64,000 bases of DNA from Candidatus Magasanikiibacteriota bacterium (lineage in GTDB: Bacteria > Patescibacteriota > Patescibacteriia > Magasanikbacterales > UBA922): contig JABIBU010000016.1 in assembly GCA_018652595.1 (NCBI GenBank), positions 26,911 to 90,910 on the forward strand, read 5' to 3'. The notes beneath the pieces are model-generated. The model made no database searches and was not told the DNA's origin. It saw only the letters and a list, made by a program, of their open reading frames with translations. Positions 3,106 to 63,440 of this stretch are shown piece by piece (position 1 is the first letter of the stretch; the number at the start of each line of letters is the position of its first letter). The translations under genes were made by a program, and so were the position numbers.

Positions 3106-4587
3106 ATGCAAAAATTTCTAACTGAAAAATCAATCTTTTTTCAAAAACAAACTATGTTACTACTAGTTTTGTTTTTTTTACTCCGATTTGGTTCTTTTTT
3201 CTTGAATGGACATCTAATAATTCAAGGCATAATGGTTTTTGCACTACTAATGCTACTTGGAATTCTGTATTTCAAAAATCCTGATTGGGCATGGATGCTG
3301 GTATTGGGCGAAATATTTCTTGGTGGATCGGGTCACTATTTGGAATTCATTGGACTCTCAATTAGAACGCTATTCATTGGTTTCTTTTTATTCCTCTGGG
3401 CATCCGACAATATAGGCCGGAGTATACTGAAAAAAAGACTAAAAATTCACAAATATACAAACTGGATAATTTCACTATTATTTTTATCCTTATTTTTTGC
3501 TTTTGTAAATGGAATTTATCATGGCCACGAAGCTCATCGAGTGATTCAAGACTTTATGCCATTTACTTTTTTATTTCTTATTTTTCCATCTTATCACCTG
3601 TTCAAAGAAACAAAGATTCAAAACTATCTGGCTCGTCTAATGCTAGTCTTTATTATTGGGACAGCTATTTTTTCACTGTTTTCTTTTGGGCTTTTTTCAT
3701 TAGGAATTACCGAGATTCATGAGCCTTTTTACAATTGGTACAGAGACATCGATGTCGGAAAAATAACAGACATGGGAACTGGTTTTTTTAGAATAGTAGA
3801 GACAACCCATCTAATGATCGTACCTTTAATTTTAATAATATCATCACTATTAATGAGGAATGAGAAACACCATAAAATGTGGCGACTACTCCTAATACTA
3901 TCAATTATAATTCTAGTGCTAAATCTATCTCGTGGTTATTTCCTTGCTTTAGGGGTTGGGCTCCTAGTCTTGAAATACAAACACAAATGGAAACAGTGGA
4001 TAAAAGAATCGCTATACACAATACTGTTAGTTGTTGTAATTTTTTCTAGTCTACATTTTATGGCTAGCGCTGGACAGTCTTTTGGTTGGGAATTGTTCGG
4101 TGTTCGATTAAAAAGCTTTACTCAACCGCAAATTGAAGTTAGTACCAATACTCGAATGATGATCCTACCAAACATAGTACAAATGATTGGTCAAAATCCA
4201 GTCTTGGGTATAGGGCTTGGTGCAACTGTTACTTTTATAAATTACAACACATACGAAAGCCTTACAACACCACATTTTGACTGGGGGTATCTAGAAATGT
4301 GGGCAGAACTAGGCCTACCAGGCACTCTGATGCTTATATTTTTATATTGCTTTGTTGCGTATGCTCTAATAAAAAAAATAAAAGCCATCCCTGAGTGGCA
4401 TGACTTTGATGTTGGATTGCTAGCTGCTATTATATCCCTTCTAGTGATGAATATTACGATCGCAGCACTATTTCATGTCTTTGGAATTTTATTCCTGATC
4501 TTCGCACTCACTATTGCGACAAAATATACTGAAATTTTTGATAGAACCACAGCTTTGCTTTATCAGATGTTTAATCGAATGAAATAA
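3106..4587 (+). CDS. O-antigen ligase (Wzy_C) family polytopic membrane protein
   Basis: About 12 TM helices. Wzy_C-like loop motifs NLSRGYF, RMMILPNIVQMIGQNPVLGIGLGA and HFDWGYLEMWAELGLPG. Confidence 0.55.
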   Translation: MQKFLTEKSIFFQKQTMLLLVLFFLLRFGSFFLNGHLIIQGIMVFALLMLLGILYFKNPDWAWMLVLGEIFLGGSGHYLEFIGLSIRTLFIGFFLFLWASDNIGRSILKKRLKIHKYTNWIISLLFLSLFFAFVNGIYHGHEAHRVIQDFMPFTFLFLIFPSYHLFKETKIQNYLARLMLVFIIGTAIFSLFSFGLFSLGITEIHEPFYNWYRDIDVGKITDMGTGFFRIVETTHLMIVPLILIISSLLMRNEKHHKMWRLLLILSIIILVLNLSRGYFLALGVGLLVLKYKHKWKQWIKESLYTILLVVVIFSSLHFMASAGQSFGWELFGVRLKSFTQPQIEVSTNTRMMILPNIVQMIGQNPVLGIGLGATVTFINYNTYESLTTPHFDWGYLEMWAELGLPGTLMLIFLYCFVAYALIKKIKAIPEWHDFDVGLLAAIISLLVMNITIAALFHVFGILFLIFALTIATKYTEIFDRTTALLYQMFNRMK

Positions 4588-5141: not shown

Positions 5142-5843
5142 TTATTTTAATTTATGCTTTTCTAAAACAACCTTTTTTGCATCTTCGTACTCTCTCACTC
5201 GCTTTGAAATTCCAGGTAAACACTTGAAAGGAACCCCATAAGCAATTCTTGGCAACCAACCACTCATTGTACCGCCACCTAGTATTGTAAATAAATATTC
5301 ATCTACCCAAACGCCAGCCTTACCTTTCTCAGCCATACCCAACCAAAGATCCCAATCTTGAAACCTCTTCAAGCTCTCATCCCATTTCATCACATCTTTT
5401 CTACGGATTAAACTGGTGCTGTGAATATAATTATTTTTTTCCAATTCACTCTCATCAAATTTTCTAGCAGGAATTTTTTTTGTTATATATTTTATGATAG
5501 ATGTCTCATGATTGCAATATGCATAACTCGCTTCACTATTCTCTTGCAACTCACCACACATCTTTTCCAACATTTCAGACTCTCCAATCACATCCGCATC
5601 CCAAAATATCACATACTCACCTTTTGCTTCTTCCAACCCCCTGTTCCTGGCACTCGGCGCTCCCTTATTTTCTTGTCTGATTAATTTAACAGAATCATCT
5701 ACCTCAACTTTCTCATCACTACCATCATCTACTACTATGATTTCAATGTTTTTATAAATTTGTCTTTTTATTGAATCTAAAACCTTAGGCAACAAATGCA
5801 CTCGGTTATATATTGGAATAATTACACTGATTAATTCTTTCAT
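5142..5843 (-). CDS. glycosyltransferase family 2
   Basis: ISVIIPIYN...VVDDGSDE...WDADV GT-A signature. The ORF extends to 5936 but a start at M32 (MKELISVIIP) fits family N-termini. Confidence 0.7.
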   Translation of the reverse strand: MKELISVIIPIYNRVHLLPKVLDSIKRQIYKNIEIIVVDDGSDEKVEVDDSVKLIRQENKGAPSARNRGLEEAKGEYVIFWDADVIGESEMLEKMCGELQENSEASYAYCNHETSIIKYITKKIPARKFDESELEKNNYIHSTSLIRRKDVMKWDESLKRFQDWDLWLGMAEKGKAGVWVDEYLFTILGGGTMSGWLPRIAYGVPFKCLPGISKRVREYEDAKKVVLEKHKLK

Positions 5844-6000
5844 AGAAAATGTGTCATTGCGAGGAGTGAGTATACACAACGCGGCAATCTCATACATTAA
5901 TAGCGATACTAATGTATCAAAAACTGAGATTGCCACGCAAAAAATTTTCTTTCAGAAATTTACTGCTCGCAATGACAGTGTTTTTATAATTTGGATCACC

Positions 6001-7140
6001 CTACATCCACTTACCAATCACTTTCATCTGACTATCCCACTTAAAATTTGCCCGAACCCTGATCCTTGCATTCTCAGATAATCTCTTGGCATATTCATCA
6101 TTATCAAACATTTCTGCAATTGATTTTATTACACTCTTGTCGCCCTTATATATATCGACTAGAACACCAGTCTGTGTGTGAAGCACTGCTTCTTCTACAC
6201 CACCACTCTTACCTGCCACAACAGGCAATCCAGCTGCCGCTGCCTCCAGATAGACCAAACCTAACCCCTCTTCTCTACCTTCATCTGGATGAGTAAGCAA
6301 TACAAACAAATCTGCCAAATGATAAAACTTGTTCAATTCTTCGTGTGGTACCTCACCAATAAACCTAACTACACTCTGCAAAGAATTCTTTTGTATTTCT
6401 TTTAACAAAAAATCTTTCTTCGGACCATCACCAACCACAAACCAAACCAAATTTGGAACTTCTTTCAATATCTCTGGCAACATTCTAATAAGATGAGTGT
6501 AACCCTTACCCTCATCCAGCCTGGCAACAGTTAGCATTACTTTTTTCCCTTCCAAGGCATACTGCGCCTTTAGACTATTATTTTCTTCCTCGCTCATTTC
6601 ATCATAAAAAATCTGCTCTGGACAAGGATACAGCACACTTGCCTTACTCTCATACTCGGGCAATACTTTTAATAGTCTGTGTTTCAAATTTTTGCTGTTA
6701 AATACAATCTGCTCAGAATCTTCCAAAACTTTTTTTAACATTCCTCGTTTCCACCTAGATCTGGTAGCATACTCTATATCTGTACCATGTGAAAAAACCA
6801 GATAAGGAATTTTTTTGAACTTTTTTATAAGCCTGGCTACATGCCCAACTGGCAATACGTGATGCAAATAAATTATCTCGATTTTTTCTTTTTTTATAAT
6901 TCGTAACACCTGAAAAAATAACTTGATCCATCTAGGCCAAATAAAGACCGGGAAAAGCATGTTTTTTCTAATTGTCTTAAATTTTTCCCCCTTATCAAAT
7001 TCTTTTGCATTCTTGTAGCCCGGTGCCAATACGACAACATCAGCTGGATCTAGCTCGCCAGCAAATTGACGAACATAACTAGCTATTCCACCAATCTTTG
7101 GTGGATACTCAAATGTAATAATTAATTTTTTCATAAACAA
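6001..7140 (-). CDS. glycosyltransferase family 4 (GT-B)
   Basis: C-terminal EGLGLVYLEAAAAGLPVVAGKSGG motif of GT1/GT4 enzymes. Confidence 0.8.
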   Translation of the reverse strand: MFMKKLIITFEYPPKIGGIASYVRQFAGELDPADVVVLAPGYKNAKEFDKGEKFKTIRKNMLFPVFIWPRWIKLFFQVLRIIKKEKIEIIYLHHVLPVGHVARLIKKFKKIPYLVFSHGTDIEYATRSRWKRGMLKKVLEDSEQIVFNSKNLKHRLLKVLPEYESKASVLYPCPEQIFYDEMSEEENNSLKAQYALEGKKVMLTVARLDEGKGYTHLIRMLPEILKEVPNLVWFVVGDGPKKDFLLKEIQKNSLQSVVRFIGEVPHEELNKFYHLADLFVLLTHPDEGREEGLGLVYLEAAAAGLPVVAGKSGGVEEAVLHTQTGVLVDIYKGDKSVIKSIAEMFDNDEYAKRLSENARIRVRANFKWDSQMKVIGKWM

Positions 7141-30004: not shown

Positions 30005-30856
30005 CTATTTTTTAAACAAATCATTCACCCAAGCCAAACCAACACCAAAAGGTCGCAGTATCGCAATCCAAATCCATTTATACATCGGTTCCCATTTTTT
30101 GAAATAGGTCAGCATAGATCGAGTGAATTGTTTTTGTTTCCACAATGTTTTTCTTTTTTTGAAACTCTGTCCGACATAGTCTATCGCAGATATCACTGGT
30201 GTATACATGACTTTATAATTCAAACGTTTTGCTTCACGACATATGTCGACATCCTCATACCAAATAAAATATCTTGGATCAAATGCCCATCCAAGCTTGT
30301 CGACAAATTCACGACGCATGAGCATGAATGATCCACGCACACTATCCACCTCTTGTTCTTTTTCAATATCTAAATCTTTCATGTGATATGAATTCAAGGT
30401 ATTTGGAAATATATGTGGAATCTTCAAAATAAGTGCGAGCTGCTCCCAGAGTTTTGGGAATCGACGAGGTGAGGCATCCCAATTGAATTTTCCATATTGA
30501 TCCAAAAGTTTTGGACATACTATTCCCACATCCTTATTTTTTTTCATCCAATCTAAAATACCATCTAAACTTCCTTCTTCAACCATCATATCTCCATTGA
30601 GAAATAACAAAAATTCACCTTGTGCAATTTTCAATCCTTGATTATTTCCCGCACCAAATCCTATGTTTTCTTTATTTTCTATCAATTTCACATGTGGAAA
30701 TTGATTCTTCACAATCTCAATGGTCTGATCACTCGATCCACTATCTACGATGATCTCCTCACACGTCACATCTTTGCATCCAGCAAAAACAGACGCGATC
30801 TGACGCGCAATTTCTTTTTCATTATTCCAAGTGACAGTGATTATACTTAGATCCAT
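30005..30856 (-). CDS. glycosyltransferase family 2
   Basis: LSIITVTWNNEKEI…IVDSGSSD GT-A signature. Start taken at M21 of the ORF (MDLSIITV); the longer ORF would overlap the GxxExxY gene. Confidence 0.7.
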   Translation of the reverse strand: MDLSIITVTWNNEKEIARQIASVFAGCKDVTCEEIIVDSGSSDQTIEIVKNQFPHVKLIENKENIGFGAGNNQGLKIAQGEFLLFLNGDMMVEEGSLDGILDWMKKNKDVGIVCPKLLDQYGKFNWDASPRRFPKLWEQLALILKIPHIFPNTLNSYHMKDLDIEKEQEVDSVRGSFMLMRREFVDKLGWAFDPRYFIWYEDVDICREAKRLNYKVMYTPVISAIDYVGQSFKKRKTLWKQKQFTRSMLTYFKKWEPMYKWIWIAILRPFGVGLAWVNDLFKK

Positions 30857-31309
30857 ACACTGATTACGTTGATTAATTTGGATTACACTGATTTTTATAA
30901 GTCTTGTAATTTCCAAAACGTTTTACTTCTAGACTGGGATTACCAAAATTTATAAGCAAACCAACTTCCAGACCACTAGCTTTTAAATAAGAAACTGTCT
31001 GGGTTTTAAATATTTTCGATACTTCCCCACTTACAGCTTTCAATTCAACAACAACCTTACTGTTTACCAACAAATCAACCCTAAAAACTCCTATTATTTT
31101 ATTGTTATATACTACATCAAACTTTTTTTCTGTTTCGACAGCATATTCTTGTTCAGTTAAATCATCTAACAATGCTGTATGATAAATTTGTTCCTTAAAA
31201 CCTGGGCCCAACCCCCTATGAATCTTCATTGCAATACCAATTATTTCACGTGTTAGTTTGCTCCCTTTTTACATATTCAGTGTAATCTATTATAATCTGT
31301 CAATCAGTG
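30857..31309 (-). mobile_element. inverted-repeat-flanked mini-cassette carrying the GxxExxY gene
   Basis: cactgatt-N16-attacactg (30857-30889) versus cagtgtaat-N14-caatcagtg (31278-31309). Terminal 8-9 nt are perfect reverse complements and the interior is AT-rich and similar. The right IR overlaps the stop of the PGI/PMI gene; the left IR encodes the last 7 codons. Confidence 0.5.
30873..31229 (-). CDS. GxxExxY family protein (PD-(D/E)xK-like), N-terminally short
   Basis: LGPGFKEQIYHTAL (GxxExxY), VDLLVN…VELKAV, LLINFG motifs. The conserved N-terminal segment (…TREIIGIA) is encoded in frame upstream of the ATG after a TAA, with no canonical start. Confidence 0.7.
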   Translation of the reverse strand: MKIHRGLGPGFKEQIYHTALLDDLTEQEYAVETEKKFDVVYNNKIIGVFRVDLLVNSKVVVELKAVSGEVSKIFKTQTVSYLKASGLEVGLLINFGNPSLEVKRFGNYKTYKNQCNPN

Positions 31310-32368
31310 TTTCATTTCTTTCTTAAAAAAATCTACATAAGGAATATCTGTTGGATCAATATTTTTTAGCAGTGCGCTGTAATAGCTAATATAACTTCCC
31401 AAAACTAAAGCTTCACAAGCCTGAAGTAATGCATCTTTTTCTTTCATATTATAAATTTCGTTTTGAATTCCATTTTTGTTTAGAACTTTTTTGGTCACAT
31501 CATAGCGCTTGCCGACCCTCTTGTGATACAAATCTGATTTTAACATTATAAATAACAAACTGCGCTTATTGCTAGCTGGATTCATCATCCCTTCCATTAG
31601 ATGATGATTGAGCTCTGGAATTGCAAAATATGCTGCCATACGCTTGGCATTCTCATTCATTTGGTTTGCCGCTATATGAGCATTGCCGAGTAAATGCTCT
31701 GACGCAACATACAGAATACTCTTGCTAATTGTTTTTCTGGCTAATTGCTTTGCAATATTTTCCTTTTCTGGAGTAAGTACACCAAAAAGACCATCATAGT
31801 ACGCAAGTGTCTTAATTACCTCTTTTACTTTTTTCTGAGAAAGTTTTAGTAATCCAACTCTAGAAAATAAAATCAACTGACCCATAATTGAATAGCCCAA
31901 ACCCATACGAGGTGAACCACAAGGATTATTCTCTGTGGTAAAAATTAAGGCAGGCAAATTATTTCTCTTAGCAAAAGCCTTTAACTTTCCACCTGCAGAA
32001 ATAACAACAATCTTGGCTTTTTTTATTTTTGCTTTTTTGACAGCTTCGACAACCTCTTCTGTTCCACCGGAATAGCTAGAAGCAATTACCAGAGTCTTAC
32101 TATTAGCAAATTTTGGAACATCATATCCATTTATAATGTCAACTGGCAACTTTAATTCACTAGAAAATAAATTTCTAATCAAATCTGCGCCTATAGCAGA
32201 CCCACCCATTCCCAAAACTACTACGTTTTGAATATTTTTATAATTTGTAGGAATTTTCAAATCCTGAGCAGTATTATAAATTTGCTCTACTTGTTTTGAA
32301 AGTAATTGCAAACTTCCAAGCATATTTTGTGAATCTAGTTTTTTTATTTTTGTTATATTGTCTAGCAT
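31304..32368 (-). CDS. bifunctional phosphoglucose/phosphomannose isomerase (SIS domain)
   Basis: SIS-domain VLGMGGSAIGADL and a second SIS half. Archaeal-type PGI/PMI architecture. Confidence 0.7.
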   Translation of the reverse strand: MLDNITKIKKLDSQNMLGSLQLLSKQVEQIYNTAQDLKIPTNYKNIQNVVVLGMGGSAIGADLIRNLFSSELKLPVDIINGYDVPKFANSKTLVIASSYSGGTEEVVEAVKKAKIKKAKIVVISAGGKLKAFAKRNNLPALIFTTENNPCGSPRMGLGYSIMGQLILFSRVGLLKLSQKKVKEVIKTLAYYDGLFGVLTPEKENIAKQLARKTISKSILYVASEHLLGNAHIAANQMNENAKRMAAYFAIPELNHHLMEGMMNPASNKRSLLFIMLKSDLYHKRVGKRYDVTKKVLNKNGIQNEIYNMKEKDALLQACEALVLGSYISYYSALLKNIDPTDIPYVDFFKKEMKH

Positions 32369-33712: not shown

Positions 33713-34582
33713 CTAACAGACCAAAACATCATCACTACTTTCACCAGCCTTCTTCGCCTCAGCATACTTACTCATAGTATCTCGCATGGCATCATGTACT
33801 TCGCGCATTTTTATACCGACTTTTTCCAAATTTTCTGATGCTAAAAAGTTATTTGATCTATGTTTTTTGGCCAACCCCTGATCAACTAGATCATCCTCTG
33901 TTATCCACTCGCAAGTAAAATCTGGATCAACTAGTTCTTGGTACAAATCTATAATCTCTCTATGCTTCAAAGTTCCTGGATTGGTCACATGAAAAATTCC
34001 TTCAGATTTTTTCTCCATTAACTGATAAAAGACCTCTACCATATCGTCAATAATTGTCACACTATTTTCCACATCTATAACCTTTGGAAAAGATGACAGC
34101 TTGTCTATCATGTTACTTGGTGATGGAATATAGTCAATTGGCATTCTTATTCTTCCTATTCCAATATTTGGCATTGTTTGTAGAGCAAGATCAGCTGCGT
34201 ATTTTGCTTTGGAATAGACTGCTTTTGGATTGGCAAAATCATTCTCACGCCATTTTTTATCTTCATGTGATGAATCACCATAAAAAACACAGCCAGATCC
34301 AATATGAAGTAGATAGATGTTCCTTTCCTGACAGGCTTGGGCAATCATAATTGGTAAAACCGTATTACCAAGAATTGTTTCCATCTGATGATCCTCACAC
34401 CAATCTACATTTGGTTTACCACGAACCCCAGCGGCATTTAGAACTGCATCGGGATTGTGCTCATCCAGCAATTCCAAAACATCTTGTTTTGTCTCAACAC
34501 GTTTTTCTGCCAAGACTGAATCCTGCCATGCTTTGTGACAGCGTTCACCAATATATCCTTTACCTATTATTAATATTTTCAT
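33713..34582 (-). CDS. NAD-dependent epimerase/reductase, dTDP-4-dehydrorhamnose reductase (RmlD)-like
   Basis: Short Rossmann N-terminus and YSKAK catalytic motif. 4-nt overlap with the upstream rmlB. Confidence 0.6.
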   Translation of the reverse strand: MKILIIGKGYIGERCHKAWQDSVLAEKRVETKQDVLELLDEHNPDAVLNAAGVRGKPNVDWCEDHQMETILGNTVLPIMIAQACQERNIYLLHIGSGCVFYGDSSHEDKKWRENDFANPKAVYSKAKYAADLALQTMPNIGIGRIRMPIDYIPSPSNMIDKLSSFPKVIDVENSVTIIDDMVEVFYQLMEKKSEGIFHVTNPGTLKHREIIDLYQELVDPDFTCEWITEDDLVDQGLAKKHRSNNFLASENLEKVGIKMREVHDAMRDTMSKYAEAKKAGESSDDVLVC

Positions 34583-35580
34583 ATATTATATTGCCTCTTA
34601 TAGTATTCCTTATATTCCCCACTCTTACAATTCTTTACCCATTCATAATTATCCTTATACCATTTTACCATTTCTTTTAGTCCGTCTTCAAAGCTAATTT
34701 CTGGCTCCCAACCCAATTCATTTTTAATCTTACTAAAATCAATTGCATACCTTTTATCATGCCCGGCTCTATCCTCAACATGCTCTATCATCTCCTCGCC
34801 CCTGCCAACGGCTTGTAAAATTTTGAAAGTTAAATCTTTGTTAGTCAATTCATTATTTCCTCCAAGACAGTATGTCTCACCAATTTTTCCTTTGTGAATT
34901 ATGAGATCTACTCCACGATTGTGATCATCTACATGGATCCAATCACGAATGTTCATTCCATCACCATACAAAGGTACTTTTTTATTTTCAAATAAGTTGG
35001 TAATAAAAAGTGGAATAACTTTTTCTGGAAACATACAAGGTCCATAATTGTTTGAGCAATTGGAGATAGTTATTGGAAGATTGTGTGTATGATAGTATGC
35101 ACGGACCAAATGATCTGATGCGGCTTTGGAAGCTGAATATGGGCTACGCGGATCATAAGGAGTCTCTTCATTGAATCCAGGATCATCTGGTCCAAGCGAA
35201 CCAAAAACTTCATCAGTAGAAACATGGTGAAAACGAGTTCCAAATTCTTTTGCTGAGTCCAACAATACTTGTGTGCCAATCACATTAGTCACCACGAAGG
35301 CTTGTGAATCTAAAATTGATCTATCTACATGCGACTCAGCGGCAAAGTGAACTATAATATCTACATCCTTTACCAAATTATTTACTAAATCACGATCACA
35401 AATATCACCTTTTACAAATTTATAATTTGGATTATCTTCAAAATCTTTTAGATTTTCCAAATTTCCTGCGTATGTCAAAGCGTCCAGATTAGTAATTTTA
35501 TAATCTGGATATTTGTTTATTATATAGCGAATAAAGTTGGAGCCGATGAACCCAGCACCACCTGTTATGAGTAAGCGCAT
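34579..35580 (-). CDS. rmlB: dTDP-glucose 4,6-dehydratase
   Basis: ITGGAGFIGSNF Rossmann motif, YSASK catalytic triad region, typical RmlB length. Confidence 0.9.
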   Translation of the reverse strand: MRLLITGGAGFIGSNFIRYIINKYPDYKITNLDALTYAGNLENLKDFEDNPNYKFVKGDICDRDLVNNLVKDVDIIVHFAAESHVDRSILDSQAFVVTNVIGTQVLLDSAKEFGTRFHHVSTDEVFGSLGPDDPGFNEETPYDPRSPYSASKAASDHLVRAYYHTHNLPITISNCSNNYGPCMFPEKVIPLFITNLFENKKVPLYGDGMNIRDWIHVDDHNRGVDLIIHKGKIGETYCLGGNNELTNKDLTFKILQAVGRGEEMIEHVEDRAGHDKRYAIDFSKIKNELGWEPEISFEDGLKEMVKWYKDNYEWVKNCKSGEYKEYYKRQYNI

Positions 35581-35628
35581 AAAATTTTATTTAATATTTT
35601 TTTATAAACCACGACAGGTGGTGCTGGG
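35551..35628 (-). promoter_or_regulatory. 15-bp perfect inverted repeat bracketing the rmlB ribosome-binding site and start codon
   Basis: cccagcaccacctgt (35551-35565, codons 6-10 of rmlB) and acaggtggtgctggg (35614-35628, 5' UTR) are perfect reverse complements separated by 48 nt that contain the SD and ATG (35580). Confidence 0.45.
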
Positions 35629-35670
35629 TGAATCCTGCCCCGCCGGTAACTAGTAAATGCATAATAGTTT

Positions 35671-36108
35671 ATCCTGAGCGTAGCGAAGGATCTCTCCTAC
35701 CTCAGATTTTATTTAATAATTAAAATAATGGTCTAATTTTTGACATTGTAACCACATTGTCGTATAAATCATTCCAATCTTTATTGTTCTTTTCAATAAG
35801 TTCTATTTTTCTTTTTCTAAGCCACCCCTTCAATTCTCTTTCTCTATTCATTGCTTCATGTTTAAAATGAAAATGTTCCCAATATATCAATCTATTAACT
35901 TTGTATTTCTTTGTGAAAGCATTATCAAATGTGCCTTTTTTATGTTGGTTAATTCTTTTTACTAGACAATTTGTAAAACCAATATAAATTACTTTGCTTA
36001 TGCTAGCAGTCACGTATACATAATAATTTTTCCTCCTAGGTATCATATTAAAATGTAAGTATTTATTCTTCGAAAGATCCTTCCTCGGTCTTGAGACCTC
36101 CTCAGGAT
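35671..36108 (-). mobile_element. inverted-repeat-flanked mini-cassette carrying the GIY-YIG nuclease gene
   Basis: atcctgagcgtagcgaaggatct (35671-35693) versus agatccttc-N17-ctcaggat (36075-36108). Termini agatccttc / ctcaggat are perfect reverse complements. The right IR overlaps the NUDIX stop codon. Confidence 0.5.
35720..36046 (-). CDS. GIY-YIG nuclease family protein (small, homing-endonuclease-like)
   Basis: YYVYV…IYIGFT…R…H…G…E GIY-YIG catalytic motifs in a protein of about 100 aa. Start taken at the internal M (MIPRRKNYYVY); the longer ORF overlaps the NUDIX gene. Confidence 0.7.
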   Translation of the reverse strand: MIPRRKNYYVYVTASISKVIYIGFTNCLVKRINQHKKGTFDNAFTKKYKVNRLIYWEHFHFKHEAMNRERELKGWLRKRKIELIEKNNKDWNDLYDNVVTMSKIRPLF

Positions 36109-52685: not shown

Positions 52686-52705
52686 AAATAGATCATTCCT
52701 TTATT

Positions 52706-52814
52706 CCCCTCTCCTTTACAAGGAGAGGGGTTAGGGGTGAGGTCAATCACTTTAGGTTTCTAGTTTTAACCTCATCCTGTCCTTCTCCTTGTTAAGGAGA
52801 AGGGACGTTCTAAG
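52706..52814. repeat. double-hairpin repeat element, copy C (module 1 52706-52744; module 2 52764-52814)
   Basis: cccctctcc-tttacaa-ggagagggg-ttaggggtgaggtc … ttttaacctcatcctgtccttctcc-ttgttaa-ggagaagg-gacgttctaag, located between the clp ATPase start and the upstream gene. Confidence 0.7.
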
Positions 52815-53172: not shown

Positions 53173-53185
53173 AGTTAAAATGCTT

Positions 53186-53275
53186 GAAAGGCTTGAAAAG
53201 CCCAAAAGGCTAGAAAGGCAAAAGTATTTCAAGCCTTTCCAGCTTTTCTGGCATTTTAAGCCTTTGTATTATATC
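53186..53275 (+). repeat. AT-rich intergenic motif family copy 2 with preceding 13-bp inverted repeat
   Basis: gaaaggcttgaaa (53188-53200) :: tttcaagcctttc (53227-53239), then caagcctttccagcttttctggcattttaagcctttgtattat. Confidence 0.55.
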
Positions 53276-60423: not shown

Positions 60424-61344
60424 ATGTCTATCAAAGTCTTGAAACAAAAAGAACTAACCTGGGTCAACATCGACAAACTCGATAATGAGGCTTTGGCTTA
60501 TCTAAAAGAAAATTATAACTTCCACCACTTGGACTACGAAGATTTGCAAGGTGAGGTACAGACCCCAAAAATAGACGTATATAAAAATTATCTATTTCTG
60601 GTCTTTCATTTTCCTCATTGGAATTCTGTTTCACAAAAAGTAAAATCTCATGAAGTAGACGTATTCATGGGAGATGGATATCTAATCACAATCCAACACA
60701 CCAAGAGCAAAGAAATAAAAAACTTTTTTTATCGCTGTACAAAAAACAAAAAAGTAAAAGCTGACTGGATGCAAACAGGCCCAGGCCATCTATTATACAG
60801 ACTCACAGAGGCACTATTTAGAAATAGCCAGCCAATATTAGACACTATTGGAAAACAAATATCTGAGCTAGAAAATGAGATTTACTCTGGAGAACAAGAT
60901 ACTAAGACTGTAAAAGAACTTGCTATTCATCGTAGAAATATTTTGCAATTTAGAAGAATACTAGACCCACAACGATATCTAATTAGTAATCTTACTCATA
61001 TTCGCAAATCCTTTTTGGATGAAAGCTTGGCAATTTATTTTGATAATGTTAGCGATTATTTGAGCAAAATCTGGTCTATTACAGACACTTACCGAGATAC
61101 AATAGATGGATTACATGTAACAGTAGAATCTCTTATAAATCACAGGACAAACAAAGTAATTAGTGCTCTAACAGTTATTTCTGTCTCACTACTACCTCTT
61201 ACTTTGCTTTCTGGTATTTATGGCATGAACATCGCTGGTCTACCACATGCCCAAAATCCTTTTTGGGTCTGGATGATGTTTATAGGGATGCTATCTTTTA
61301 TACTAATAGTGATAGCTGTGATGAAGAAGAAGAAGTGGTTGTAA
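60424..61344 (+). CDS. corA: magnesium/cobalt transporter CorA
   Basis: C-terminal two TMs with the YGMNIAG (GMN) signature. Confidence 0.85.
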   Translation: MSIKVLKQKELTWVNIDKLDNEALAYLKENYNFHHLDYEDLQGEVQTPKIDVYKNYLFLVFHFPHWNSVSQKVKSHEVDVFMGDGYLITIQHTKSKEIKNFFYRCTKNKKVKADWMQTGPGHLLYRLTEALFRNSQPILDTIGKQISELENEIYSGEQDTKTVKELAIHRRNILQFRRILDPQRYLISNLTHIRKSFLDESLAIYFDNVSDYLSKIWSITDTYRDTIDGLHVTVESLINHRTNKVISALTVISVSLLPLTLLSGIYGMNIAGLPHAQNPFWVWMMFIGMLSFILIVIAVMKKKKWL

Positions 61345-61346
61345 TA

Positions 61347-61757
61347 AGTAGAAAGGTAAAAGTATAAAGTAGAAAGATTATGTCTTTAGAAAAATTTGAA
61401 GATATAATTGCCTGGCAAAAAGCTGGCAAACTTACTTTAAGTGTCTATAAAACCTTTAAATGTTGTAAGGACTATAATTTTAAAGATCAAATACAAAGAG
61501 CTACAGTATCAATAATGAATAATATTGCCGAAGGGTTTGAAAGGAAATCAAATAAAGAGTTTATAAGATTTTTGTACATTGCAAAAGGATCTTGCGGAGA
61601 AGTTCGATCAATGCTCTATTTGGCAATTAAATTAAATTATATAAAAGAAGAAGATTTTCAAGAGTTTTATAATAAATCAGTAGAAATTTCCAAGATACTT
61701 TCCGGATTAATTAAATCACTCAAATAACTTTCTACTTTTACCTTTATACTTTCTACT
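61347..61757 (+). mobile_element. inverted-repeat-flanked mini-cassette carrying the four-helix-bundle gene
   Basis: IR-L agtagaaaggtaaaagtataaagtagaaag (61347-61376) and IR-R ctttctacttttacctttatactttctact (61728-61757); terminal 9-mers perfect and duplicated. The cassette fills exactly the corA-murJ intergenic gap. Confidence 0.55.
61380..61727 (+). CDS. four-helix-bundle protein (23S rRNA intervening-sequence protein family, TIGR02436-like)
   Basis: AWQKA…VY…RATVSIMNNIAEGFERKS…EFIRFLYIAKGSCGE matches the family consensus. Flanked by 30-nt inverted repeats. Confidence 0.75.
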   Translation: MSLEKFEDIIAWQKAGKLTLSVYKTFKCCKDYNFKDQIQRATVSIMNNIAEGFERKSNKEFIRFLYIAKGSCGEVRSMLYLAIKLNYIKEEDFQEFYNKSVEISKILSGLIKSLK

Positions 61758-61764
61758 GATTTTC

Positions 61765-63378
61765 ATGATCAAAAGAATATTGTCTTCACAATCAAATTCT
61801 ATAACAGGCGCTGCCGTAGTTCTCGGTCTAGCGTCTTTTATAAGTCGATTAATTGGTATAGTCCGTGATCGCCTCTTTGCTCACCACTTTGGAGCTGGAG
61901 ATGTATTGGATGCATACTATGCAGCATTTAGAATTCCTGATCTAGTTTACAATTTGATAATTGTCGGAGCCCTGTCAGCTGGTTTTATTCCTATCTTTAT
62001 GAAATTGCTGGTAAAAGACAAGGAAGAAAGCTGGAAAGTAACCAATAGTATAATAAATATTTTAGGATTGATACTAGTGATTACTTGTGGAATTTTTTTC
62101 TGGTTTACACCTGGGCTAATGAAACTGATAGTACCTGGTTTTGATGGCGAGAAAATGCAGATGACTGTCACTCTAACTAGAATAATGTTCCTAAGTCCAA
62201 TCTTGCTTGGTATCAGTGGTATTGCTAGCAGTGTATTGCAATCTTTTAAAAATTTCTTGATCTACTCCCTCACACCAATCATGTATAATTTGGGAATTAT
62301 TATTGGTGTGATTTTTTTTGTACCAATTTGGGGAATAAACGGCTTAGCGTACGGTGTGATACTTGGCGCACTACTGCATCTTGCTATTCAAATCCCCTCT
62401 CTATATCATCACGGCTTTCGTTATCAAGCATTGTTTTTGTGGAAAAACAAATATGTCCGTGAAATTGGTCGTCTCATGATACCACGAACTTTGGGCATGG
62501 CTGTTAGTCAAATCAATTTATTAGTAATTACAATTTTAGCTTCAACTCTCACAGCCGGAAGTATTGCGATTTTTAATTTGGCCAATAATTTACAATTTTT
62601 TCCCATTGGCTTAATCGGCATTTCTTTTGCTATTGCGGCATTCCCTACTTTGGCAAAATTTGTCGCTGAAGACAATAAGCAGGAAATGATAAACCAACTA
62701 TCCTCGACCATTCGTCAAATTTTATTTTTTATAATTCCTCTCACTGTCGCCTTTTTACTATTACGCGCCCAGATTGTTCGCGTAGTTTTGGGCTCTGGTC
62801 AGTTTGATTGGAATGACACAATTCTCACTGCCAATACTTTAGCTTTTTTCTCAATCTCACTTTTTGCCCAGTGCTTAATTCCACTACTCGCTCGTGCTTT
62901 TTATGCTCTACACGACACATGGACACCATTTTTTGTAGGACTTGTCAGTGCCGGAGTAAATGTAATTGGAGTACTATATTTCAGACAGCTTTTAGGTGTC
63001 AGTGGTCTAGCACTTGGTTTTTCAATAGCTATGATTGTACAGATGTCCCTGCTCTGGCTACTTCTAAGAGGAAAACTTGGGACTCTGCACGAATCAAAAA
63101 TAATTATGTCGCTTTATAAAATTTCTGTAGCTGGAGTAATTATGGCCATATCCGTGCAAATTTTAAAAATCCCCCTAGCCAATCTAGTAGACATGACCAA
63201 GTTTTGGGGAATTCTAACTCAGGGATTCGTAGCCGGTGGAGCAGGCTTGATTATATACGGATTTATCTGCTGGATTTTAAGACTAGAAGAAATGCACCGA
63301 TTCTTTGGAAGTTTGAAACGTAGATGGTTAAAATTAACAAATGTACAAGGTGAAATTAATAGAGCGGATGAAATTTAG
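61765..63378 (+). CDS. murJ: lipid II flippase MurJ
   Basis: 14 TM. N-terminal RD motif region (GIVRDRLFAHHFGAG) characteristic of MurJ/MviN. Confidence 0.85.
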   Translation: MIKRILSSQSNSITGAAVVLGLASFISRLIGIVRDRLFAHHFGAGDVLDAYYAAFRIPDLVYNLIIVGALSAGFIPIFMKLLVKDKEESWKVTNSIINILGLILVITCGIFFWFTPGLMKLIVPGFDGEKMQMTVTLTRIMFLSPILLGISGIASSVLQSFKNFLIYSLTPIMYNLGIIIGVIFFVPIWGINGLAYGVILGALLHLAIQIPSLYHHGFRYQALFLWKNKYVREIGRLMIPRTLGMAVSQINLLVITILASTLTAGSIAIFNLANNLQFFPIGLIGISFAIAAFPTLAKFVAEDNKQEMINQLSSTIRQILFFIIPLTVAFLLLRAQIVRVVLGSGQFDWNDTILTANTLAFFSISLFAQCLIPLLARAFYALHDTWTPFFVGLVSAGVNVIGVLYFRQLLGVSGLALGFSIAMIVQMSLLWLLLRGKLGTLHESKIIMSLYKISVAGVIMAISVQILKIPLANLVDMTKFWGILTQGFVAGGAGLIIYGFICWILRLEEMHRFFGSLKRRWLKLTNVQGEINRADEI

Positions 63379-63404
63379 TACACGATACAATATACACGAA
63401 ACAA

Positions 63405-63440
63405 GATAGTACGTACTTTAAGTACGTACTATTTATTTTT
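63405..63440 (+). terminator. terminator downstream of murJ
   Basis: agtacgtact-tta-agtacgtact-atttattttt. Confidence 0.6.

Follow-up and report, generated by a model that had tools for sequence, protein, structure and literature searches.

In a 64-kb stretch of a Candidatus Magasanikiibacteriota genome (assembly GCA_018652595.1, contig JABIBU010000016.1, positions 26,911 to 90,910; this whole stretch of 64,000 nt is called the window below), the gap between the genes corA and murJ is occupied by a small gene for a four-helix-bundle (4HB) protein of the intervening sequence (IVS) family, which is bracketed by two inverted arrays of short tandem repeats. This unit is probably a selfish gene cassette of the IVS type, residing in an operon of protein-coding genes and not in rRNA. 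Its parts and its host genes are as follows.

60424-61344, + strand: corA (Mg2+ transporter), the upstream host gene (PF01544, 1.3e-60); stop codon at 61342-61344
61347-61376, + strand: left (5') arm, AGTAGAAAGGTAAAAGTATAAAGTAGAAAG, made of the four 7-nt NNNAAAG units TAGAAAG, GTAAAAG, TATAAAG and TAGAAAG
61380-61727, + strand: 4HB 'IVS protein' gene, 115 aa (PF05635, 3.9e-38; TIGR02436, 5.8e-37)
61728-61757, + strand: right (3') arm, CTTTCTACTTTTACCTTTATACTTTCTACT, made of the four CTTTNNN units CTTTCTA, CTTTTAC, CTTTATA and CTTTCTA
61765-63378, + strand: murJ (lipid II flippase), the downstream host gene (PF03023, 3e-98); ATG at 61765
63404-63434, + strand: terminator-like hairpin after murJ, the only one in the corA-4HB-murJ unit

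The 4HB protein matched PF05635 with 130.4 bits (cut-off 33.8) over profile positions 1-106 of 106 and TIGR02436 with 126.3 bits (cut-off 24), and these full-length matches confirm the family to which the 115-aa open reading frame (ORF) had been assigned in an earlier, model-made reading of the DNA (the original prediction). The nearest solved structures are PDB 2GSC (3e-13) and 2RLD (9e-9). The three genes are all on the + strand, and no promoter-like or terminator-like site was detected between corA and murJ, the next promoter-like site lying past the hairpin at 63404-63434. As the cassette has neither a promoter nor a terminator of its own, it depends on read-through from the host operon. 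The arms do not carry the T-run typical of intrinsic terminators and, with no consensus found between the two host genes, a reading of them as ordinary terminator or promoter sequences was rejected.

The 30-nt imperfect inverted repeats were found at the predicted coordinates and with the predicted sequences. The left arm begins after a spacer of only 2 nt past the corA stop codon, and the right arm is followed by 7 nt and then the murJ ATG, so that the element does fill the intergenic gap. The left array stops 3 nt upstream of the 4HB ATG, and the right array opens on the first base past the 4HB stop codon. A repeat search gave an arm complementarity of 34 nt at 79% or of 30 nt at 87%, according to the register, and in an alternative register the left arm reaches back to 61341, over the corA stop codon. 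The two pairing registers and the 'imperfect' centre of the repeat both arise because four 7-nt units stand in tandem in each arm; the imperfect centre is thus array structure and not decay. The 9-mer agtagaaag had been reported twice in each arm, and four of the six window copies of AGTAGAAAG indeed lie in the arms (0.75 copies expected; none of 100 shuffles reached six). Local alignment of the upstream flank with the reverse complement of the downstream flank yielded z = 10.1 against shuffles, the computed arm-arm RNA duplex has -29 kcal/mol (z = -5.3, none of 500 shuffles being as stable), and the minimum-free-energy fold of the whole cassette closes with the arm-arm stem. Among the 68 genes of the window, a significant flanking inverted repeat was present at only two, the 4HB gene (z 7.2) and a GxxExxY gene described below (z 4.2). 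No direct repeat is evident outside the 4HB arms (TTGTAAT... versus ...GATTTTC). The window holds this one 4HB cassette and one solo hairpin of the AAAG/CTTT array type.

The 4HB family was then followed in other genomes, where thousands of proteins at 60-75% identity occur across the candidate phyla radiation (CPR)/Patescibacteria. A metagenome scan with alignment of 37 homologues gave 80 loci (designated by L numbers) with 82 4HB genes. A flanking inverted repeat with z of at least 4 was present at 65 of these 82 genes, and 50 of 78 loci had at least three AAAG units upstream together with at least three CTTT units downstream, the flipped arrangement being found in none. The general form is (NNN[NN]AAAG)n up to the start codon and (CTTTNNN[NN])n from the stop codon. 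In 26 loci the CTTT array starts at the stop codon or 1 nt past it, and in many loci the upstream array stops 0-10 nt before the ATG. AAAGT upstream and ACTTT downstream are by a wide margin the commonest 5-mers of the flanks. The arrays range from 2 to more than 20 units, most commonly 4 (4-5 units upstream in 42 of 74 loci), with dominant spacings of 7 and 9 nt; autocorrelation peaks at lags of 7-9 were seen in both flanks and in none of the coding sequence. The arrays are also specific for the gene: 43 of 70 4HB genes scored at least 28, compared to 8 of 238 other genes in the same loci (Mann-Whitney p = 4e-23), and most of these eight are host genes between two cassettes or another small cargo gene.

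The genomic setting of the family is equally characteristic. Both neighbours are on the strand of the cassette in 51 of 57 cases and both on the opposite strand in none of the 57, with gaps of typically ~30-60 nt. The 65 cassettes with two identifiable neighbours represent 60 distinct neighbour contexts, and pairs of 4HB genes that are ~80% identical were found in unrelated contexts, while none of the 80 loci has a 4HB copy inside an rRNA gene. The proposal that an IVS-like or MITE-with-cargo family (MITE, miniature inverted-repeat transposable element) inserts at gene junctions of mRNA operons is supported by these counts. The two arms also co-vary in 'flavour', AAAGTC going with GACTTT and AAAGTT with AACTTT: 37 of 56 loci were concordant, and the maximum in 10,000 permutations was 33. 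The most divergent 4HB proteins (58% identical, L073 and L091) have other repeat cores.

Some loci depart from the general form. In L077 (833-3491), three 4HB genes, two of them adjacent, are split by long CTTT-type arrays that all run in one direction, and in L050 (2812-3563) CTTT arrays flank the 4HB gene on both sides; both break the inverted rule. The upstream AAAG arrays of L014 (1955-2140), L019 (2813-2989) and L052 (1927-2113) have grown to 22-25 units (~180 nt), which indicates a minisatellite-like instability of the arms. In L083, the last ~30 nt of the upstream host gene and the AAAG left arm (846-912) are repeated directly after the right arm (1288-1356). With ~65 nt this duplication is unlike a classical target-site duplication and could be the footprint of a single-crossover integration or of unequal recombination.

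The corA-murJ junction itself was compared among relatives. In four of them (L008 to L011, with CorA proteins 82, 71, 70 and 67% identical), corA is followed directly by murJ, and the 4HB gene is absent. The L010 junction is a bare, unstructured spacer of 23 nt, as expected for the empty sites that the original prediction had proposed to look for; this holds less well for L009, which has an unrelated ORF-less 28-nt periodic hairpin (5925-6022; CAGTNNN / NNNACTG units, 38-nt loop, z -4.1), and for L008, which has a weak hairpin. The L009 hairpin loop holds a near-consensus promoter-like TTGACA-N16-TATACT. The L008 hairpin was dropped as evidence, its fold being no better than those of shuffled sequences (z -0.9).

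A fifth relative, L012, has the same 4HB cassette at this junction, with MurJ and the 4HB protein both 88% identical to those of the window. The ratio of non-synonymous to synonymous substitution rates (dN/dS) of the 4HB gene between the two is 0.07, at pS = 0.55, and the arms differ at 5 of 60 nt by manual count. The changes include one compensatory pair: in the innermost helix, TAGAAAG is replaced by TATAAAG and, in the facing arm, CTTTCTA by CTTTATA. The low divergence of the arms, this compensatory pair and the dN/dS of 0.07 mean that the gene and the arms are both constrained. The arms of other orthologous pairs turn over too fast for unit-by-unit alignment, and window/L012 is the only pair with a clean compensatory change. 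In L012, a TGA replaces the invariant Gly70 codon of the 4HB ORF (590-592); as the contig has a low coverage (2.7x), it is either a sequencing error or a fresh pseudogene; the dN/dS of 0.07 refers to the remainder of the ORF.

Two further cassettes of the same layout, carrying a GxxExxY and a GIY-YIG gene, had been suspected in the window, and a solo hairpin belongs beside them.

30856-31310, - strand: second cassette, with a GxxExxY (PD-(D/E)XK-fold) gene at 30873-31274 (PF13366, 2.4e-31; TIGR04256, 1.5e-33)
30856-30893 and 31271-31310, - strand: arms of the GxxExxY cassette, GATTA / TAATC repeats ~10 nt apart (flanking-repeat z 4.2)
35671-36108, - strand: third cassette, with a 108-aa GIY-YIG gene at 35720-36046 (PF01541, 9e-14)
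35671-35705 and 36071-36108, - strand: gapped inverted arms of the GIY-YIG cassette, both with ATCCTGAG and GAAGGATCT[C/T]TC
53175-53270, + strand: solo AAAG/CTTT hairpin, consisting of GCTTGAAAG, GCTTGAAAA, GCCCAAAAG, GCTAGAAAG and GCAAAAG, followed by reverse-complement units

The suspicion held for the GxxExxY cassette and, through homologues, for both types, whereas the window GIY-YIG repeat is real but gapped and alone not significant (z 1.4). The GIY-YIG homologues in L101 and L103 have strong repeats (z 18.6 and 14.1), and the arms of such homologues are inverted repeats of 40-80 nt with a GAAAGATCTTTC core. GxxExxY homologues from other Magasanikbacteria-like genomes point the same way as the surrounding operon genes, with arms that abut or overlap the start and stop codons and with repeats that are near-perfect over 34 nt in L092 and perfect over 20 nt in L098. 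The GxxExxY and GIY-YIG homologues came from separate homologue and context look-ups; tblastn with the window GxxExxY and GIY-YIG genes found no homologue in 91 loci. The three cargo types share a common layout, with arms of unrelated sequence. The window GxxExxY ORF (31229-31274, - strand) begins with ATG TAA and continues in frame with KGSKLTREIIGIAM..., which aligns with the N-terminus of 130-aa homologues. Given the TAA at codon 2, the protein could be made only from the internal ATG at 31229 (118 aa), and this copy may be an early pseudogene.

Related cassettes elsewhere, which had been anticipated, are abundant among the homologous loci, and the GxxExxY type lies at different junctions of one operon in two genomes: in the AspRS-CTP_transf-Ham1/NUDIX operon it follows CTP_transf in L092 and precedes it in L094. 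At a second junction of the same operon, L094 carries an ORF-less copy, in which the left arm is followed by 14 nt from the start of the ORF and then by the right arm. The left ends of this and the full copy are 93% and the right ends 83% identical, and the ORF-less copy has a fold z of -6.6. The pair is direct evidence of copying within a genome followed by decay to a solo hairpin. In L094, the repeated element also seems to take in the final codons and stop codon of the host gene upstream (2450-2461 / 3339-3350; GGTTTGGTATAA versus CGGTTGGTATAA), and the right arm of L098 runs into a candidate start codon of the gene downstream (2899-2910), so that insertion may rewrite the ends of host genes.

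The solo hairpin at 53175-53270, which sits between divergent genes, is built of 9-nt GCNNGAAAG units and their complements over 95 nt (-40.4 kcal/mol, z -6.2, none of 200 shuffles as stable). It seems to be related to the arms of the 4HB cassette but to lack cargo, and solo AAAG/CTTT hairpins are also present in L008, L017 and L087.

The following mechanism would account for such an element. The cassette unit, consisting of the gene for the 4HB ('IVS protein', Avd-like) protein and two inverted arrays of about four 7-9-nt repeats, would be transcribed by read-through from the corA-murJ operon. Once transcribed, the two arrays would most likely form a ~30-bp stem, which would loop the cassette out and bring the host cistrons together again, like the terminal stem of a 23S rRNA IVS, and which would be a natural and likely substrate of RNase III. 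This looped-out layout may be what lets tightly coupled operons tolerate the insertion. The cassette family would move to new gene junctions, would then be inherited vertically under purifying selection, and would finally leave ORF-less hairpins behind. No RNase III signature motif was found in the 64-kb window, which is silent on the remaining genome.

This proposal draws on the likeness to the ORF-bearing IVSs of 23S rRNA (Leptospira, Coxiella burnetii, Brucella and the Xanthomonas-type S23p), whose cargo is of the same PF05635/TIGR02436 family as that of the window cassette. In both, complementary termini can pair into a long stem whose loop contains the cargo. Both also lack a promoter and are carried along in the host transcript, both are distributed sporadically among relatives, and both have ORF-less forms. 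rRNA IVSs have been known since 1990 (PMC4990558). That of Coxiella is a stem with the S23p ORF in its loop, which is cut by RNase III, and it has 3-4 tandem heptamers (GACAGAT), in a strain-dependent copy number, just before the ORF (PMC4990558); the window cassette likewise has tandem heptamers directly 5' of its ORF. It thus agrees with an IVS in the features that belong to the element itself, namely the family of its cargo, the stem that closes it, the array of heptamers and the sporadic occurrence, but it departs from an IVS in location, lying at a protein-gene junction of an mRNA operon and not in an rRNA helix. It differs further in that both of its arms are arrays, with the AAAGT/ACTTT core conserved, and in that RNase III excision, demonstrated for rRNA IVSs, is for the window cassette only predicted. 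Finally, the Coxiella ORF is reported to be decaying and probably untranslated, in contrast to the intact window ORF under strong purifying selection (dN/dS 0.07).

A second parallel is given by the non-intron insertions in 16S and 23S rRNA genes of CPR bacteria, which encode 23S_rRNA_IVP and GIY-YIG proteins (PMC11270868). They resemble the cassettes described here in their CPR/Patescibacteria hosts, in the combination of IVP and GIY-YIG cargo and in that neither cargo is linked to group I/II introns; the passages of that paper matching our search terms describe them only inside rRNA genes and mention neither arrays nor protein-coding operons. The link to rRNA IVSs drawn in the original prediction is strengthened by the Coxiella heptamers and, as far as those passages go, by the cargo of the CPR insertions. 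The claim that no such system has been described also stands for the searchable literature, in which we found no description of cassettes of this kind outside rRNA; subscription-only journals are largely uncovered by it.

Several observations weigh against an IVS-type selfish cassette whose arms act at the RNA level. Among arm mismatches, the changes compatible with G:U pairing numbered 57 in sense and 52 in antisense, with no strand-specific excess, and the more stable duplex (RNAduplex) was the sense one in 49 loci and the antisense one in 29, a modest bias; a role of the arm repeats at the DNA level fits these mismatch and duplex data equally well. The conservation of the AAAGT core across very different loci, beyond what a pure stem needs, hints at sequence-specific recognition, perhaps by a trans-acting enzyme or by a pentameric 4HB protein on 4-5 phased repeats. 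Neither a target-site duplication nor a transposase was identified. Movement of the window cassette itself is not apparent either: the identical 4HB protein was found in one context only across 23 contigs, and the cassette at corA-murJ is as old as the window/L012 split, with no recent movement visible. The hairpins of L009 (clearly) and L008 (weakly) are not clean pre-insertion sites, and part of the 'empty' state may be due to loss of the ORF.

Some of these points would also be expected of a DNA-level mobile element, a MITE with cargo, in which the arrays are terminal repeats for a recombinase, transposase or HUH-type enzyme encoded elsewhere, or single-stranded DNA hairpins, and the RNA stem is incidental. 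The AAAGT/ACTTT core kept across 60 contexts and the missing strand-specific wobble signal suit this explanation, as do the ORF-less derivatives, which MITEs are for autonomous elements, and the duplication of host-gene end and left arm in L083, which resembles a recombination footprint. We nevertheless consider it unlikely, as the window cassette shows no target-site duplication, neither a transposase nor a recombinase was seen beside the 80 loci (whose neighbours were not scanned systematically), and one enzyme could not serve three cargo families because their arms are unrelated in sequence; moreover, arms that abut start and stop codons with near-codon precision are better suited to a role in expression. 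MITEs and the repetitive extragenic palindrome (REP) families, including bacterial interspersed mosaic elements (BIMEs) and REP-derived hairpin doublets (REPINs), do share with the cassettes inverted, hairpin-capable termini, an intergenic position often within operons, ORF-less copies seemingly derived from longer elements and the possibility of several copies per genome. They differ from the cassettes, most of which carry a conserved, selected gene between arms that are 7-9-nt tandem arrays instead of a single palindromic unit, and for which no transposase, REP-associated tyrosine transposase (RAYT) partner or target-site duplication was seen. The arrays might instead be cis-regulatory sites for the cassette's own 4HB protein, bound as a pentameric ring to the mRNA leader in the manner of TRAP, for autoregulation of translation or in competition with the stem. 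Such self-binding would be compatible with an IVS-type cassette. The homologue 2GSC (3e-13) has been described as a homopentameric toroid (PMC4990558), and arrays of 4-5 units are the commonest (42 of 74 upstream); the pattern of variable spacers around a conserved core is similar to that of phased repeats bound by proteins, many loci have only 0-10 nt between array and ATG, and the most divergent proteins (L073 and L091, 58% identical) go with different repeat cores. The same bracketed layout around GxxExxY and GIY-YIG genes, whose products have unrelated folds, the persistence of ORF-less hairpins without the protein and the variation of array size from 2 to more than 20 units make it a quite improbable sole explanation.

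A non-mobile resident gene whose hairpins are the usual regulatory elements (terminator, attenuator or promoter) is very improbable as an explanation and already largely refuted. The exact gene does occur in one context across the sampled contigs, it has been inherited with its neighbours since the L012 split under strong purifying selection, and L009 and L008 also have hairpins at corA-murJ; but the arms have no T-run and no terminator or promoter consensus, the same arrays accompany the gene in 60 operon contexts and almost never flank other genes, and the 4HB gene is absent from four orthologous junctions. An invertible, phase-variable segment, in which the inverted repeats are invertase sites flipping the gene or a promoter, is hardly credible: inverted repeats do bracket a segment of ~350 bp, and the L009 loop holds TTGACA-N16-TATACT, whereas the exact protein is in one orientation in 23 of 23 contigs, both neighbours are on the opposite strand in 0 of 57 cassettes, and the window cassette has no promoter consensus inside. 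A chance origin of the layout was considered and rejected. An integron gene cassette was likewise rejected, since the arms are on both sides and mutually inverted and the cassettes are single and scattered in housekeeping operons.

An IVS-type cassette in an mRNA operon thus remains the reading that we favour, and it invites a wider one, which is possible but distinctly more doubtful. The CPR/Patescibacteria may hold a widespread and so far undescribed class of operon-riding, hairpin-bounded single-gene cassettes, in which a pair of inverted short-repeat arrays is the vehicle for interchangeable 4HB, GxxExxY and GIY-YIG cargo; the classical rRNA IVS would be only the variant that ended up in rRNA. 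Taken furthest, this idea would have the pentameric 4HB protein recognise its own phased AAAG repeats and thereby control the formation of the stem, its processing or the spread of the element. Free-standing homing endonuclease genes, such as the GIY-YIG genes of the seg/mob type in phage T4, are comparable as small, selfish, co-oriented intergenic genes of variable presence, and GIY-YIG and PD-(D/E)XK folds, both found among the cassette cargo, are classical among homing nucleases. In contrast to the cassettes, these genes have no inverted-repeat arms, and the 4HB cargo has no known nuclease activity.

The cargo family and the rRNA IVS were known before; what is new is that an IVS-like element occurs in mRNA operons, that its arms are arrays and that derivatives without an ORF exist. 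Classical rRNA IVSs are single, often decaying copies in pathogens and, to our knowledge, nobody knows where rRNA IVSs come from, how they move or what their conserved 4HB protein does. If the unit is common, intact and selected at many CPR mRNA junctions, these bacteria would provide hundreds of natural replicates, with occupied and empty sites, derivatives lacking the ORF and co-varying arms, from which the insertion rules and the roles of the stem and of the protein could be worked out. It would also represent a new way for selfish genes to inhabit the densely packed operons of very small genomes while leaving them intact, and would explain the puzzling small 4HB, GxxExxY and GIY-YIG genes that break up conserved clusters as annotated in many bacteria. 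Since the 4HB protein is homologous to Avd, which assists diversity-generating retroelements (DGRs) as their accessory protein, a defined nucleic-acid target for it would be of wider interest.

Avd is a pentameric nucleic-acid-binding protein and belongs to the same PF05635 four-helix-bundle fold family as the window 4HB protein. A DGR context was rejected for the latter, as no reverse transcriptase or template/variable repeat adjoins it and the 4HB gene stands alone between corA and murJ. The genes within 6 kb on either side encode MraZ, RsmH, a beta-CASP nuclease, CorA, MurJ, LepA and RecJ; the Pfam list of these +/-6 kb includes no integrase and no reverse transcriptase domain, the sole related match being an RNase H/RVT_3 gene at the far end of the locus. 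An exact-protein look-up retrieved the identical 4HB protein from 23 contigs (among them JABHXG010000002.1 of assembly GCA_018657365.1), every time in the order corA-4HB-murJ and in one orientation. The genome recurs in samples from Saanich Inlet and from other oxygen-minimum zones. No Rfam family, rRNA included, matched the 64-kb window at the gathering threshold, and permissive E-values gave, for the 4HB and GIY-YIG cassettes, only generic hairpin matches to plant miRNA models at 35550-35641.

A few other repeat structures were noted. L024 (2100-3400) contains a 90-aa GIY-YIG gene (2186-2458) with composite arms, formed by outer CAAGT/AAAGT arrays and inner TCGAG-type repeats, 540 bp upstream of a 4HB cassette; it may be nested in, or share, an array hairpin. 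In the window, a 21-nt hairpin with 90% complementarity (35545-35634) has the start codon of the epimerase gene 34579-35580 in its loop. One of its arms is the stretch that encodes the Rossmann motif (ITGGAGF) near the start of that gene, and the other lies in the 5' leader, just downstream of the GIY-YIG cassette. The region 52700-52810 contains the palindromic blocks CCCCTCTCCTTTACAAGGAGAGGGG and CCTTCTCCTTGTTAAGGAGAAGGGA, which are mutually inverted and 51 nt apart, and which are REP-like and of a type distinct from the AAAG arrays. Lastly, a nested inverted repeat of 146 nt lies between two minus-strand genes at 5842-5987, with GTCATTGCGAGGAGT / ACTGCTCGCAATGAC as its outer and GCGGCAATCTC / GAGATTGCCACGC as its inner pair.

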